Source of the DNA: Candidatus Bathyarchaeota archaeon
Lineage (GTDB): Archaea; Thermoproteota; Bathyarchaeia; Bathyarchaeales; Bathycorpusculaceae
Assembly: GCA_963720565.1 (NCBI GenBank)
Contig: CAVRFW010000005.1
Span: 96,001-160,000, forward strand
DNA length: 64,000 bases
Reading direction: 5' to 3'
Below, piece after piece: positions 42,001 through 48,000 of this stretch. Made by a program: the position numbers. Within the stretch, counting starts at the first letter, position 1; each line of letters opens with the position of its first letter.

Positions 42001-45000
42001 ACGAAAAAGCCAGATTAAGGCTAACAAACGCCAAAATAAGTCGCGGTGCCTTCAACAGGACATTAAAACAGTCAAAAGAAAATGTCATAAAATCGATCTA
42101 CACAGTTCTCCTTCTAGGCTACTTAGGCATCTTTGAAAGCACAACTTTAGACCCCTACATCGAGATAGCTAACAAATTACACGAGTACATTGAAGCTCAC
42201 AAAGGCAACCTCAATGAGGGTGAAGATACATAAGACCATCTAAAAGTCATTGATATCATCAGAAAGGAGCTAGAAACGAGCCTAAAACAGCTCTCAAGTC
42301 CATCAAAAGACACTCTGTGACGTCACAAATCACAACTTTCAACGCAAGATAAAGCTCGTGAAAGCATAAGAACAAACAAGCCAAAATTCACAAACTAAAT
42401 ACCAAAATAAGCTTAAAACAAAGACATTCTCCACGACGGAATTTTCGGAAATTATTGGCATAGTTCCCTGCTCAACTGTGATATGTGATGTCATAGGTGA
42501 ATTTTCGAAGAAAGCACCATAAAACTTAAATCTTTACCATAAGACTGTGATATGTGATGCAACAAACTAGGTCACATACAAATCACAGAGGGGAATCTTG
42601 TGATTGAGCTCTCAGCAACACTCGTTATAGTGTTAATCTTGGTCACAATAGGAGCCTCGATAGAGTACTACAGGCAAATCCGAAAGACGCAAAGAGAATA
42701 TGAAAATGCCAAGAGCGCTGTTGAAAACATTGTTCTGAGTTTCAATAGAGAACTAAGAAGGGAAGCGGAAAGACTAGAGTTAGTAGCGTATAAGGTCGAG
42801 GGCAACAATGCTAGAGAAGACACCAACAGCAAGCGAATTGATTCAATCGAGATGAAAGTCGAGCCCTTGGAAAGTCTTCTTAGCGCGACATCAGAAAACA
42901 ATCAAGGCATTGTGTCGAAAGTCACCGAAGTCGATACTAAAGTGCAAGGACTCGAATTAGCCCAGGAGAGGCTAATAGCCAAAATCACGGGATTAGAGGA
43001 TGAAATGCAGAAATTCACATTCGCCCCTGAAATGAAGAGCGAGCCAGTTATGCCTATCAGAAGAGACAAGGCATTAGCGACATTGACTGAAACAGAGATA
43101 ATGGTGTTGGAAATGTTGTTATCTGAGGGCTCGAAAACGGCTCCTGAGATAAAAGAGAGAGTAGGACTCAGCAGGGAACATACCGCAAGACTGATGAAGA
43201 AACTCTATGAGGAGGGCTACCTGGAAAGAGAAACCGGTAAGATTCCATTCAGGTACAGCGCCAAACAAGAATTGGAAAAATTCCTAAAGAAGCCCGAAAA
43301 CCAACAGGCCTGACTTACCCAGAGAGGACGATTTTTTGCTTAAGTGTTTTTGTTCCTCCATCTACTTAAGAAATTTCAGCGAGGCGTGAGGACGGTAATT
43401 AACTCTCCAGTGTCTGTCTAGATAATCCGAGTGGCGAGAGGTTTTTGTTTGGACCACAAACTTATTCTTGGTTCCAATATAGCGTGCATGAGGGCATCTT
43501 AGGTAAATTCCCAGATTACTTGCTCTCTTGAGCACCGGGACGCGTTAAATCTTACTTCAACTGTTTCTGAATTATTGCCTGCGGAGCGCTTGGCGCAATC
43601 TTGTATTTCATGTTATTAGGTCCTCCTGTTCTCAGAAGAAAACCCCTGTTAGACATTCTAGCAAGATATGTTGAGACCGTACTGAGGCTTATTGGCTCTT
43701 TTAGTTCCTGTTCATAGACCGCCTGGATGTCTTTCGAAGAAAACCAAATCAAGGGAAAACTTTTCTGCGTTATGAAGCGCATTTTGTCAAATCTGGAAAG
43801 ATTATTCTTCGCGCCAGGGTTGGCAGCGTTAGAGACTGTGGCTTCTTCCGGCATGCCGCCTAGTAATTCAACGAGATCCAGTAATCGAACTGCTTTGTCT
43901 CGCGTTATTTGTCCCTCGAATGCGATAGTGTATCGATTACCTTCGCTATCGAATAGCTCTATACGCATTTTTCGAGCCGGCATTGAGTGGCTCACCCTAA
44001 GAGATGTTCACAAGCTTTACACTTCACAACTTATAGCTGTTATGGTTAAATCAGCAGCAGTGAAAAGTCAATTTCAGTTCGGAAAAGATGAAATAGGCTG
44101 AATTTGCACTGTTTTCATAATTACAACCTTCACAAGAATCTGATTTCACCAAACAAATTCATGCTTTACTCAATTATGTATTTGCATTGGAAGCGTAGGG
44201 GGGTCTTCTTCACAGAAAAGGACCATAAAAATAGTTATTGTATTAGAAATAGAGGTTGAAATGAGGCAGTTTTATTGCAAATTCACACGGACTTCACAAA
44301 ATGTGAACAGTATGTGATTTGAAGGGTTACATACACTATGAAAATAACAAAGTTAGAGTATTTAGAGCAAATGGGATGAAGATGCTAAAAAGTGTCAAAA
44401 TATGTAAGAATGTTCAAAGTCTTTCAATAGAATGGGATAAGACAGCCACCCCTTCATTTCCTCTCGAAAAGTTTCTGAGAAGAAGACAATAACAGGGTGG
44501 AAAAAAGATTAGTTGAGGATTATCTAAAAAAATGAATAACAAATACTTATTATATGCTCAGTGTTGCTTAGGCTTCAGAGTATATTTCCTATTAAAGGAA
44601 ATCATAACAAATTCTTAATAGTATAGTATATTTCCAGTAGAAACTTTGGGGTGTGTGGCTGTCTTTACTTTACCGCCTGCTGCTTTAAGCTTACATCACA
44701 TTTTAGGATTGTCGTGCTTCAAAACTACTTTTTTGTACTGCATCCTTTATCTGCTCCACTCGAAATAACGGTGTTGCCTTTGAAAGTGGTGGGTGCAAAA
44801 TGGGAAGTCATAGCACAATTGATGGAATATTCGAAAATTTCGTGAAGAGTGCCCAACTATTTAGAGATCGAGAGGTACTCAGGCACGACTATCTTCCTGA
44901 AAGCCTGCCTCACAGAGAAGAGCAAATTAGGCTTCTAGGTGAAACAGTGGCGCCAGTTTTGAAAGACGCTCGTTGTTCAAACATTTTCATTTACGGCAAA

Positions 45001-48000
45001 ACAGGTACAGGTAAGACTGCTGTGACCAAATACGTTTTGGGTCATTTGGAGACGAAAGCAAAGGAGTACGGTGCGCCAGTTAGATTTTCTTATGTTAACT
45101 GCAGGATGACAGGGTCAGCGTATAGAGTTTTTGCAAGTCTTACCCAGAGTCTGGGGATGTCTGTTCCTTTTACGGGGTTGTCTGTGGGAGAAGTTTTTGA
45201 TAGGTTTCGAGGGAGATTGGATTCTTCCCGAACTAATTTCATAGCTGTCTTAGATGAGATTGATGCCTTGATAAAAGATCGCGGAGATAGCGTTCTTTAC
45301 GAGCTAACCCGGATTAATGAAGGTCTCAGCAAGAGCAAGTTTTCCCTTATCGGTATATCCAATGACCTTCGATTGAAAGAGTTTCTGGACCCGCGCGTTT
45401 TTAGTTCATTAAGCGAGGAAGAAATAGTTTTCAGACCTTATGATGCAAGCGAATTGCGGAACATTCTTCTTGAGCGTTCAAAGTTGTCCTTCCACGAGGG
45501 TTCTCTTTCCGATGCAGCTTTGAGCATTTGCTCAGCCTTAGCTGCGGCAGAACATGGAGATGCTAGGCGTGCTCTTGATTTATTACGTGTTGCAGGTGAG
45601 GTTGCTGAGCGACGAGGTTCGAAACTGGTTTCTGAAGAACATGTTAGAGAGGCAGAGAAGCATATTGAGCATGACAGAGTCGTGGAAGCGTTGAAGAATT
45701 TGACTTTGCATTCAAAGCTTGTGCTTCTTAGTGTTTACCGTTTGAGTAAGGCGAGTGCAACTACTGGTGAGATTTTTGATGTTTACAGTCAACTCTGTGG
45801 CGAACTGGGATCCGGGCTCCTTACTCAGAGGCGTCTTGGCACTTTAATTAATGAACTTGACTCGATGGGTCTTGTGAATGCAAAAGTCGTGAGTATGGGG
45901 CGGTATGGTCGCACAAAGAAGATTAGGCTTGAGATATCACGGACTCTTGTCAAGGATGTTTTCCACGGTGATGCTCGACTAGGGCGCTTCTTCGATCCTA
46001 TCCGTAATTCCCTTTAGCATTTTGAATTATGTGCATCGAAAAACAGGTTCCAGAAGACCTATTTGGCTACATTGAAGTACAATAGCTCATCAAGGGTTAC
46101 CGCCTTGAAAGACTAGATGAAGGACAGAACATTAGTTTCAAGGGTTTGGAGGTTTATCACCGGCACTTTGCCCGGCGTAGGCATTAACCCCAGCTTTTGC
46201 ATGTAGTCTGTCTGATCTTGCCATCCGCCCGAGTTAACAACTAGGACACCACGATAATTGCAGCATCCCACAACGTGTACGTGTCCCGCGTGAAAAACGT
46301 CGGGTAATCGATCTATTACAAGGAAATCTCGGTTTTCAGGCGATAACAATGTTTTCCCCCCGTATGTGGGTGCTAAATGGCGGCTTTGAAGGAGTAGTTT
46401 CATTGCTTTCTCAGGGTATGCATGACTCAAGCCAGGAATTGAAGCGATGACATCATCTAGACTGCGACCGTGGTACATTAAAACTTCCACTTTGTGAAGG
46501 CCGACCAAACAGGGGTCTCCAAGCGAGTGTACTCTCCTATATTTTTGCATATCACTCAAGAACTCATTTGATATTGCAGGCTGAGGGAGTGCTTTCCTAG
46601 GTGCGTCATGGTTTCCAGGAGAAACGATGACTTCGATATAGTCTGGTATTTGCCCGATTAGTTTTGAGGCAAACCTGTATTGTTTATGTACGTCTTTTAT
46701 GACGAGTTCCTTAATCTGGTTCGGGTAGACACCTACTCCGTCAACTATGTCGCCTGCAATTAGTACGTATTTGACGCGACCAGCAATTTCTCTCATTGTG
46801 TTGTTTCCGTATTTGCCGTTAAGCCATAAGATGAACCGGTTGAACGCTTCTCTGTTGAATTTTGTGCTACCTACGTGTATGTCGGAGGTAAGCACAGCAT
46901 AAACGGGTTCTGAAGACCTGCGTTGAGGCTTCTGACCTACTTCTGGAAAAATTATGTCTTCAGCTAGGAACAGCTTGCTTCTGGTTTTTACGCCTGCAAC
47001 ACAAACGACTTGGTCGGGAAGTAGCAACTGCGCTTTTCTATGCAACTCCTCAGGCGCGTTATGAGAAACTAGTATGCTGGCGCTTGCTTGCAAGTCTTCA
47101 ACCGTGATTATAATTTGTCTTTTTACCTCTCGTTTTTCAGTTACCATGCCTATTATTTTCAGTTTGGTCTTAGCGGGTGACTTCAATGCCTCAATAATCG
47201 GAGTTGCTGCCTTGACGTCTATCCTCTGTCGTAGAAGGCGTTCAATCCGTTTGAATCGATCCTGAAAGTATTGGAGGTATTCTTCTATTGTTCCATTGGA
47301 GGTGAGTTTCCCTGTTGGGTCTTCAATTATGCTAAGCTCTGATTCCACATCCTTTGCATAAGGATGAAAACTGCTGTTGGCTTCAGTGATTGGTTCTTCT
47401 GCCCTCTCTATTTGCTCTTCCTCTTTCGGTTGTTCGGGCATTTCCTCAATAGGACCTGGCTGACTAAGGAGTGTTTCCAGAAAGACTCTGTCAATAAATA
47501 CTGGTTTTTCGTTTAACTCCTCAATTCTCAGCAACGCCCTGTTCATAATGGCAGTGGGGTCGTCAGTTAGGGCTGCGGCGCTTAGGAGTTCAAAGGCTTC
47601 CCTGTCTAGTTGGTATCCCGCTGCAATAGTTGTTTCAACGGCTCTCTGTAGCCTTTCTATTCCACTCACGCCGCAATGTCTCCTCTGCTCTATTCTTAGG
47701 CTATTTTCGCTCCTTCCCCAAGGACAATTCGCTTTCTCCCTCTTTTAGATTCAATAACGTTTGGGAAAGCAGTTTAATAGCGAGCAGTGTCTATATGTTT
47801 TCTCCTCTATTTGTCTATTCACTCTTGCCGCTTTGTGTTGAGGCTGAAATTCAGTTAGCTTTTCTACATGATATCTTCATCTACATACTTGTTGACAGTT
47901 GAATACGAGTTCCCAACGGTCTCTGATTGGGCAAAAATCTTGAATAAATTTGTTCACAGCACTCAAACAAGCATACTGGAAGCGAATTTCCTTTAATTTA

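Follow-up and report, generated by a model that had tools for sequence, protein, structure and literature searches.

A candidate Cdc6-1/ORB replication origin in a Bathyarchaeota genome with a TTCACA box arm that tracks a winged-helix gene

Introduction

Bacterial response regulators such as CtrA, Spo0A, MtrA and HP1021 act at DnaA origins. To our knowledge, little has been established about the timing of initiation in archaea, and UBP is the one archaeal accessory factor to have been dissected. UBP was reported with its ucm motif by Dhanaraju et al. (2025, PMC12141716). An essential protein, it forms a saddle-shaped, beta-rich dimer, binds within the DUE and has more than 300 sites; it occurs in Sulfolobales and Desulfurococcales only, and the authors of that work ask if analogues exist elsewhere. 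In the Sulfolobus (Saccharolobus) oriC1/Orc1-1 system, ORBs composed of a dyad and a G-string are arranged as ORB(-)/AT-rich/ORB(+), a pattern also given in the Ori-Finder-Arch preprint, over a core of about 130-170 bp. At Sulfolobus oriC3, an ORB-less origin with TACTAC inverted repeats, the neighbouring gene encodes WhiP, a protein with two winged-helix domains. Repressors of the BlaI/MecI/CopY family (PF03965) carry an N-terminal winged helix-turn-helix (wHTH) and C-terminal dimerisation helices, with Thr47 in the recognition helix. Arg51 of the BlaI-type recognition helix reads bases and is shared by PadR proteins, according to PMC3506622, and the operator is given as TACA-NN-TGTA in PMC7253601.

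Here we describe a candidate origin in the genome of a Candidatus Bathyarchaeota archaeon (assembly of 2.09 Mb, 89% complete). The window is a 64,000-nucleotide stretch of contig C5, and positions refer to it unless given as contig positions.

Results

The genome-wide survey's note had proposed the gap between g00713 and cdc6-1 (g00714) as the replication origin, with three ORBs and their G-strings around an AT-rich stretch. The proposal is upheld by the ORB sequences, by their canonical polarity and by an arrangement that is unique in the assembly and conserved: judged from sequence, the gap (43984-44799, 816 bp) is very likely the normal initiation site of chromosome replication, a candidate Cdc6-1/ORB oriC. 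Its length is counted from ATG 43983 (MPARK), the g00713 start conserved in orthologs; an alternative GTG at 43995 gives an 804-bp gap. Three strong ORBs and one weak ORB were found (Table 1). In a matrix scan, with the matrix trained solely on loci outside the window's order, ORB-A, ORB-B and ORB-C were the top three matches in the genome, and, apart from ORB-B/ORB-C, the genome had no ORB(-) and ORB(+) within 350 bp of each other. The locus joins dyad and G-string ORBs in ORB(-)/AT-rich/ORB(+) polarity to an adjacent oriC1-type Orc1/Cdc6 gene, the product of which matches the Cdc6_lid, Cdc6_C and AAA domains; of 301 phylum genomes, 259 contain a single match to it at E<=1e-80. The search covered ORB-type origins in the 89% complete assembly. 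An exact-pattern ORB search of five genomes missed ORBs known in G252, and its blank for an f24 genome is uninformative.

Table 1. Features of the g00713-cdc6-1 locus (window coordinates)
Feature	Position	Strand	Description
g00713	43552..43983	-	143 aa, basic, pI 9.8; candidate box binder
Boxes 1 and 2 with TTTACA (44016)	44007, 44023; region 44007..44049		Putative operator over the g00713 promoter
Box 3 and conserved partial site	44121..44134	+	Box at 44129; TTACA at 44121
ORB-A	44182..44203	+	Accessory-arm ORB; strong
Box 4	44209..44214	+	27 bp from ORB-A start, directly behind ORB-A G-string
Boxes 5, 6 and 7	44282..44307		5 (44282) and 6 (44293), 11-bp direct repeat; 7, inverted TGTGAA (44302)
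ORB-B	44447..44468	-	Left ORB of canonical core; strong; G-string directed away from AT-rich stretch
Putative unwinding element	44469..44631		163 bp, 73% AT, between ORB-B and ORB-C
Conserved element within unwinding element	44573..44603	+	Consensus ACC-N4-GGAGTAT
ORB-C	44632..44653	+	Right ORB of canonical core; strong; best ORB match of genome
cdc6-1 promoter-like motifs, conserved (with ORB-D)	44729..44775	+	TTTTTTGTAC at 44729, TTTATC at 44746
ORB-D	44754..44775	+	Weak fourth ORB, after cdc6-1 promoter-like motifs
cdc6-1 (g00714)	44800..46017	+	Orc1/Cdc6 initiator, 405 aa; AAA+ with lid and C-terminal winged helix

The distance from ORB-B to ORB-C is 172-197 bp (sd 3) in 71 named loci, and that from ORB-A to ORB-B varies between 220 and 285 bp. 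Pairing of ORB-A with ORB-B around an unwinding element was rejected because of this variable distance, the loss of ORB-A in some genomes and a polarity opposite to the known one. The conserved element between ORB-B and ORB-C is followed here by an ATTTCCT/AGGAAAT inverted repeat. The motifs preceding cdc6-1, together with ORB-D, possibly serve Cdc6-1 autoregulation. Recurrence of the layout in relatives, as the survey had reported, was found again: cdc6 is divergent from g00713 in 27 of 29 related loci, the remaining two stopping at contig edges. In f26, cdc6 was considered as unlinked from the locus; it lies 3.3 kb off, behind an inserted gene, and this idea was discarded. The only match of an Rfam scan for structured RNA was a tRNA at 48087.

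The locus shares with Sulfolobus oriC1 its dyad and G-string ORBs, the ORB(-)/AT-rich/ORB(+) arrangement of the core, an adjacent cdc6 and one more ORB on the cdc6 side, whereas its core is longer (207 bp) and ORB-A with the TTCACA boxes forms an additional arm. No ucm (TTATACAAAC) was found in the unwinding element, where a conserved motif of different sequence occupies the same position; over the whole gap, even the best ucm match differs at two positions. Five Sulfolobus-like loci share the ORB polarity but are without the arm (2 boxes versus 4.6 expected). One of them spans exactly 130 bp, holds the TTATACAAA motif and matches the 130-bp ORB3-DUE-ORB2 of PMC12141716.

The survey's note had also taken the GC-skew minimum as a mark of the origin. 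The cumulative minimum of C5 is real (contig position 138,434), but it deserves little weight because skew is confounded by gene orientation, and we rejected it as proof. The gene-orientation skew of C5 reaches its minimum at contig position 135,199 and the third-position skew at 330,497; contigs C2, C3 and C13 have deeper minima, and that of C9 (contig position 244,204) falls inside cdc6-2. That the second cdc6 is without ORBs, as had been claimed, holds both here (best score 1.8 in C9 240-250 kb) and at 16 cdc6-2 paralog loci of other genomes, none with a score above 12.

The seven TTCACA/TGTGAA boxes counted by the survey are present against 0.49 expected from the genome mean, and form the densest 400-bp cluster in the assembly (the next unrelated cluster has 4). 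The 29 related loci carry 3-7 exact boxes apiece, and 74 of the 75 named loci with enough flank have 4-11, the other 5 of the 80 having too short a flank to be counted. Of the fixed spacing also claimed, constancy between genomes stood and a regular period did not. Box 3 precedes ORB-A by 53 bp at 62 of the 74 named loci, and boxes 5-7 recur in relatives at offsets of +100, +110/111 and +120/121 from ORB-A; the spacer of the inverted pair 6/7 varies. Helical phasing of all boxes was rejected, as distances of 106, 73 and 11 bp are whole turns and those of 80 and 15.5 bp are not; A-frequency periodicity differs between segments (9 versus 10.5 bp). The boxes lie on the accessory arm together with ORB-A, and their positions rule out a place within the unwinding element. 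A TATA-like hexamer (44031-36) is flanked by boxes 1 and 2 and by an inverted degenerate box, GGTTAA at 44044, which reads GGTGAA in most relatives; from this we infer the putative promoter and operator in Table 1. A wider box regulon was rejected, with few box pairs elsewhere in the genome and a look-alike at C7:72932 inside an ORF.

The g00713 protein is predicted to have an N-terminal beta-beta-alpha module (residues 1-42), a variable linker and a C-terminal winged helix (61-130), the recognition helix of which has invariant L100, T105, Y106, L107 and R109. In fold comparison it resembles winged helices in general, many of the matches being tied (best Z 9.6); the N-terminal module had no fold match above Z 4.9, and a homodimer prediction scored 0.01. 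PF03965 occurs on 18% and 11% of members in two Atlas clusters of orthologs, reproducing the range given by the survey, and 16 of 43 family members match it at E<=0.01 (best 6e-5). T105 and R109 align with the T-x-x-x-R of CopR 2k4b (E 0.12). The likeness to BlaI/MecI/CopY covers a winged helix with a T-x-x-x-R recognition helix, ACA-containing half-sites and autorepression as the inferred mode. Membership was nonetheless rejected: g00713 scores 14.3 bits, below the Pfam gathering score of 22.6, it has its winged helix at the C terminus, behind an unrelated N-terminal module, and TTCACA in mixed arrangements differs from the TACA-NN-TGTA operator. WhiP shares a winged helix encoded beside an origin; g00713, however, has one such domain in 143 aa, lies at an origin with ORBs, and gave no profile match in any of 11 genomes of f51, a family taken as Sulfolobus-like from its origin sequence. 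Identity with WhiP is therefore unlikely. UBP offers a parallel in being a small basic protein with a second, non-initiator motif at an archaeal origin. The two differ in that g00713 is a predicted winged helix, its boxes lie outside the DUE in one cluster, and some lineages dispense with the gene; the fold and the f51 result led us to reject g00713 as a UBP member, UBP being compared by its description only. NCBIfam has no family for the protein, and the literature searched, mostly open-access papers, held no description of a g00713-type protein or of a TTCACA box.

That g00713 binds the boxes had been guessed from position, and comparison between genomes lends the guess support. TT[CA]ACA, broadened from TTCACA after f37 was seen, was counted within 250 bp of ORB clusters, with dinucleotide shuffles as expectation. 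Where g00713 is adjacent, matches are enriched at 40 class loci (193 versus 52.2 expected) and at the 22 phylum loci, of 30, with an ORB (103 versus 25.3, f37 supplying 52 of the 103). They stay when the gene moves: 10 origins with g00713 located elsewhere have 51 versus 10.7, boxes recur near -45 to -60, +35 to +50 and +100 to +136 from ORB-A, and where a long ORF was found to the left of the arm, its 3' end faces the arm. This argues that the boxes are more than a promoter operator. Where g00713 was not found (13 origins), 12 matches compare with 13.1 expected; ORB-A is lost along with gene and boxes, and in four f17 genomes the origin is reduced to ORB-B/AT/ORB-C. Other neighbours do not predict the boxes: a membrane-anchored wHTH gene and a 130-aa gene are kept in all 7 class genomes whose lack of g00713 was confirmed by profile search. 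Nor does cdc6-2, since a single-cdc6 genome has 11 boxes versus 1.3 expected; G045, with both Cdc6 paralogs, has none. An altered recognition helix goes with an altered repeat in f37 (TGTTAA, 46 versus 3.4) and f56 (GTATAA, 25 versus 2.6).

Several observations run the other way. In f55, f65, f67 and f69, and at 3 of 6 f35 loci, g00713 stands beside an ORB without box enrichment. Relocated g00713 genes mostly have few boxes (0-2 in the upstream 500 bp at six loci), which weakens a general autoregulation. In some genomes (G116), ORB-A and boxes lie apart from ORB-B/C and cdc6, an arrangement as compatible with a promoter module as with an origin arm. The loss counts are not independent, because the f17/f31 loss is one contiguous deletion and adjacent genes go missing from assemblies together. 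On the supporting side, g00713 occurs across the phylum in 203 of 301 genomes, only 4 of them without cdc6-1 (both genes 199, cdc6-1 only 60, neither 38); in the class, compared by hand, the 201 genomes divide into 124 with both, 2 with g00713 only, 12 with cdc6-1 only and 63 with neither, 46 class genomes belonging to one family (f24). G086, the sole f24 genome with cdc6-1, carries a g00713 fragment on the same contig; because the helix in this fragment is the f41 one, we took the contig as probably foreign and left it out of the support.

Discussion

From the comparative data, our best reading is that g00713 encodes an autoregulated winged-helix accessory factor that would modulate a Cdc6-1 origin. 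The protein is likely to bind TTCACA half-sites through its winged helix, as co-occurrence of gene and boxes suggests. The full proposal, a Cdc6-1/ORB origin with a detachable, g00713-bound arm modulating Cdc6-1, we hold at slightly better than even confidence, on sequence comparison. By analogy with Sulfolobus oriC1, where this step is established, Cdc6-1 monomers on ORB-B and ORB-C would load MCM onto the AT-rich DNA that these two ORBs flank. Cdc6-1 would probably control its own gene through ORB-D. Left of this core, ORB-A and the half-sites at fixed distances would form the arm; the g00713 winged helix would occupy the half-sites, repress its own promoter via the inverted pair around the TATA-like box and, on either side of ORB-A, modulate Cdc6-1 occupancy or origin firing. 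A timing or damping role, exerted on Cdc6-1 at ORB-A or by way of a nucleoprotein arm bent near ORB-B, is favoured over an essential one because arm and gene are jointly lost in some lineages that keep the core. Such a factor would work like CtrA, Spo0A, MtrA and HP1021, as a sequence-specific regulator that has several boxes by initiator sites, adjusts initiation and regulates its own gene; those are response regulators on DnaA origins, and the likeness is functional, with no homology implied.

It is conceivable, if unlikely, that g00713 binds the boxes solely as a transcription factor, ORB-A and boxes being a Cdc6-responsive autoregulated promoter that leaves the origin unaffected. Distant class loci do carry inverted boxes around a TATA-like hexamer upstream of g00713, ORB-A lies 160-260 bp upstream of the gene even with ORB-B/C or cdc6 elsewhere, the core persists without the arm, and the weak likeness to BlaI/CopY repressors is consistent with such a role. 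Retention of boxes and ORB-A at the origin after gene relocation, with the flanking ORF ending toward the arm, argues against it, as do the rarity of g00713 without cdc6-1 and the lack of a second conserved-looking target cluster in the genome. We regard as more improbable a centromere-like site, at which g00713 would label the origin so that it can be segregated or tethered to the membrane; the membrane-anchored coiled-coil wHTH protein encoded next door (42600-43313) might take part. In its favour are a single dense cluster per genome next to oriC, a constant spacing suggestive of a higher-order complex and the frequent adjacency of the membrane-anchored gene, down to f37; that gene, however, is kept without g00713, boxes or cdc6-1 (f17, f31, f24), was not found with this query in box-bearing f58, f43 and f14 genomes, and has its own flanking ATCACA/TGTGAT sites.

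At least as improbable is a different binder (the orphan Cdc6-2, Cdc6-1 itself or a chromatin protein) with g00713 as a hitch-hiking neighbour. Cdc6 paralogs (Orc1-2/Orc1-3) bind non-ORB sites at Sulfolobus origins, according to PMC6742236, box 4 abuts the ORB-A G-string, and several families carry g00713 without boxes. Against this stand the plentiful boxes of the single-cdc6 genome, the box-free G045 and the change of box sequence with the g00713 helix. Finally, we give very little credence to the locus being inactive or one of several origins, for example beside a non-ORB origin in the 870-bp gap upstream of cdc6-2. That gap is up to 70% AT and the C9 skew minimum lies within cdc6-2, 11% of the genome is missing, and several origins are frequent in TACK archaea. 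The ORB scans around cdc6-2 and its paralogs speak against it, as does Nitrosopumilus maritimus, which has one mapped origin (PMC4010727) and whose family has the same gene-ORB-cdc6 layout.

The origin itself is ordinary apart from the box arm that tracks g00713. A broader reading, which we put forward tentatively and judge somewhat less probable than its converse, is that g00713 represents an undescribed, ancient family of sequence-specific regulators of Cdc6-1 origins across the Thermoproteota (Bathyarchaeia, ammonia oxidisers, Caldarchaeales, Thermofilaceae and others). Its members would bind an ORB-containing arm, time initiation, co-evolve with the box and be discarded when a lineage gives up Cdc6-1; in the Sulfolobales and Desulfurococcales they would have been replaced by UBP/ucm, and this same box may be the ancestor of the ucm core (TTATACA).

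With a gene family, a mapped set of sites of known sequence and lineages in which the gene was naturally lost or relocated, the locus makes g00713 open to testing as a candidate for a so far undescribed regulator of replication initiation. Because g00713 marks ORB clusters without an adjacent cdc6, it may also aid origin prediction. Orthologs occur in cultured species, Nitrosarchaeum koreense (WP_048110169.1) and Infirmifilum uzonense (WP_052884550.1) by their record names, both annotated as 'hypothetical'.

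Architecture of the probable chromosome origin

The gap between the divergent genes g00713 (encoding a 143-aa winged-helix protein) and cdc6-1 had been proposed as the replication origin. Its reported length of 816 bp holds, because orthologs place the g00713 start at ATG 43983. A matrix for ORBs, built from 45 sites at loci outside the order of the window's genome, recovered the ORB elements claimed for the gap: ORB-C, ORB-B and ORB-A take genome ranks 1-3 and the weaker ORB-D rank 6. In the same scan ORB-B and ORB-C were the genome's only ORB(-)/ORB(+) pair spaced by 350 bp or less, and, in keeping with the earlier claim that the second cdc6 lacks origin elements, no ORB turned up near its gene, cdc6-2, on contig C9. 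The ~870 bp upstream of cdc6-2 (G000:C9:244562-245433) hold neither a long ORF nor an ORB, reach up to 70% AT and adjoin the contig's GC-skew minimum.

Features of the origin region (window positions)
Feature	Position	Strand
PolD large-subunit-like ORF	34911-38348	
ATCACA/TGTGAT arrays	~41320-41400; 42335-42610	
130-aa gene	41841-42233	
Membrane-anchored coiled-coil wHTH gene	42600-43313	
g00713	43552-43983	-
TTCACA boxes 1-6	44007, 44023, 44129, 44209, 44282, 44293	+
Box 7 (TGTGAA)	44302	inverted
ORB-A	44182	+
ORB-B	44447	-
Core (ORB-B to ORB-C)	44447-44653	
Conserved core element	44573-44603	
ORB-C	44632	+
ORB-D (weak)	44754	
cdc6-1	44800-46017	+
PolD small subunit	46113-47669	convergent with cdc6-1
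tRNA gene	48087-48210	

In family f51, whose identity appears to be Sulfolobus-like, 5/5 origins consist of ORB(-), an AT-rich stretch and ORB(+) with G-strings pointing outward, and hold TTATACAAA at the middle; one spans exactly 130 bp. This polarity therefore delimits the core of the window origin, whose interior is 73% AT, while the TTCACA boxes fall outside it, on an arm shared with ORB-A. Alignment of 26 gaps revealed conserved islands within otherwise diverged sequence. Across 74 named loci (from 80; five were left out for short flanks and one has no ORB-A), ORB-B and ORB-C are separated by 172-197 bp (sd 3) and ORB-A and ORB-B by 220-285 bp.

A distinct conserved element inside the core occupies the position expected of a ucm analogue and is present also in two loci without detected g00713; positionally, it is a better analogue of ucm than the TTCACA boxes. 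It comprises ACC-N4-GGAGTAT and an inverted repeat in the unwinding element, and recurs across numerous class families as well as f44/f49. The origin sits in a cluster of replication genes, with the PolD small subunit behind cdc6-1 and, 5 kb to the left, an ORF that we take to be PolD large-subunit-like.

A conserved arm of TTCACA boxes

The seven TTCACA/TGTGAA boxes previously counted are all present, against 0.49 expected, and form the densest such cluster per 400 bp in the assembly. Their spacing among relatives is fixed, as had been claimed: in the 74 loci they lie at -175/-174, -159, -53, +27, +100, +110/111 and, inverted, +120/121 from ORB-A. In eight distant class loci, a TATA-like hexamer is clearly bracketed by an inverted pair whose spacer measures 15-16 bp. 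The ATCACA/TGTGAT arrays flanking the 130-aa and membrane-anchored genes differ from the origin box by one base and are kept in a genome without g00713.

To assess box excess, TT[CA]ACA was counted in either strand up to 250 bp from ORB clusters, and each locus was compared with 100 dinucleotide-shuffled versions of itself; the motif had been widened to this form only after TTAACA was noticed in family f37. With g00713 adjacent, 40 class loci (picked from 126 matches to span families) contained 193 boxes versus 52.2 expected. At phylum level, 22/30 loci gave 103 versus 25.3, half of these matches coming from five f37 loci; the other eight, of which six are relocated genes and two are short loci, lacked an ORB. 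Where g00713 lies elsewhere in the genome (f44, which includes Ca. Caldarchaeum, f49 and f58), 10 origins held 51 boxes versus 10.7 expected, at offsets from ORB-A like those elsewhere, and in 9/10 a long flanking ORF ends toward the arm. Origins of genomes without detected g00713 showed no excess (12 versus 13.1 expected; 13 origins, one of which, L215, is truncated and carries no information). The entire arm including ORB-A is absent from four f17 genomes, where ORB-B directly adjoins the membrane-anchored gene. Arm-less f17 origins without g00713 (L108, L127, L129) carry an additional small ORF between ORB-C and cdc6-1.

In a handful of families a diverged recognition helix accompanies another repeat: TGTTAA in f37, GTATAA in f56 and TTCAC in f42; no repeat stood out in f55 and f67. 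The comparison of loci as a whole lifts g00713 as candidate binder of the boxes above the guess from position that the genome-wide survey's note had made. The f56 repeat, TGTATAA, is the ucm core TTATACA in reverse. In f56, a family that includes Infirmifilum, loci L095 and L278-L281 have a three-ORB layout next to the g00713 ortholog and a long way from cdc6-1. Loci of f37 (L071-L075) have ORB-A twice, in direct orientation at a distance of ~60 bp and with CGCCT as a conserved prefix; degenerate ORB-B and ORB-C surround a very AT-rich stretch. In f44 (L079, L080), two TTCACC sites lie between the relocated g00713 ortholog and a divergently oriented, presumably PCNA-like gene.

The g00713 protein and its distribution

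In the predicted structure of g00713, a variable linker joins an N-terminal beta-beta-alpha module to a winged helix (helix-domain pLDDT ~88). Fold matches are generic (Fur, PadR, MecI) and include many ties; the top one has Z 9.6 and an rmsd of 2.6 over 70 residues. Fold searches gave no clear match for the N-terminal module. Pfam and NCBIfam returned no family above cut-off for the window protein. The recognition helix, its most conserved part, aligns weakly with CopR (E 0.12). The family, almost always single-copy, comprises 474 clusters at 50% identity, its named members all annotated "hypothetical". It is present in 36/41 close genomes, 126/201 class genomes and, by profile search, 203/301 phylum genomes, two of them weak matches only.

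Compared by hand, 124 class genomes hold both g00713 and cdc6-1, 2 g00713 only (assemblies of >200 contigs), 12 cdc6-1 only and 63 neither; the phylum counts are 199, 4, 60 and 38. In all these counts related genomes are not independent observations, and draft assemblies lose linked genes together. Several phylum families, and G053, keep an ORB upstream of g00713 with cdc6-1 distant or on another contig. PMC12141716 places UBP in Sulfolobales and Desulfurococcales; from this range and genome traits, five families of the cdc6-1-only group (f38, f46, f50, f51, f52) probably belong to these orders.

Families wholly without both genes are f24 (45/46), f21, f45 (two weak matches aside) and f53. No cdc6-1 was found in 45/46 f24 and 4/4 f21 genomes, and five of these that were checked (G057, G063, G067, G072, G052; L101-L105) hold only a 30-34% cdc6 paralog, with no nearby ORB scoring >11. 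A large Bathyarchaeia family may replicate without an ORB origin. The contig with the sole f24 cdc6-1 (L282, G086:C37) is probably mis-binned, its g00713 fragment matching f41.

A candidate accessory factor for Cdc6-1

Cdc6-1 on the two core ORBs would load MCM, as established in Sulfolobus. Judging from the comparison of loci, g00713 probably binds TTCACA half-sites; it would occupy both sides of ORB-A and may cover its own promoter through the inverted pair around the TATA-like hexamer. Because some lineages do without the arm and g00713 seldom persists in the absence of cdc6-1, its likeliest role is tuning Cdc6-1 occupancy or timing, rather than initiating. We lean, with some reserve, toward g00713 as an accessory factor tuning the Cdc6-1 origin; families keeping g00713 without boxes, the few boxes upstream of relocated g00713 genes and one genome with the arm split from the core count against this.

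That g00713 controls transcription only is unlikely, and a segregation or tethering role for the boxes and g00713 is decidedly so. Binding of the boxes by another protein is quite improbable. The membrane-anchored and 130-aa genes do not explain them, since both persist in 7/7 class genomes without g00713, nor does Cdc6-2, since a genome with a single cdc6 has 11 boxes and G045, with both paralogs, has one. It is very improbable that the locus is not the active origin, or not the sole one. The skew minimum reported beside the gap is real (contig position 138,434), but it adds little as origin evidence because the gene-orientation minimum (135,199), the third-position minimum (330,497) and the C9 minimum, which as reported dips at the second cdc6 and lies inside it, are elsewhere.

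The window origin matches the oriC1 kind on every sequence feature tested. The arm and g00713 fail those features of UBP/ucm, WhiP and BlaI/CopY for which the comparison was clear-cut. If our reading of the sequences holds, they would work like an accessory origin binder. A mostly open-access literature search, its scope short of the Ori-Finder-Arch supplement listings (10.64898/2026.08.15.744077) and of the Nitrosopumilus mapping paper, in which the repeats may be mentioned, found no description of the protein or the box; Bathyarchaeia origins are probably among those predictions already. Judged by sequence, the origin is real and ordinary; the accessory arm is real and undescribed. Elsewhere in the genome, TTCACA-N5-TTCACA-N7-TGTGAA at G000:C7:72932 resembles boxes 5-7 and lies inside a surface-type protein ORF, probably by chance. 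The tRNA gene to the right of the origin is 124 bp long, leaving room for an intron.
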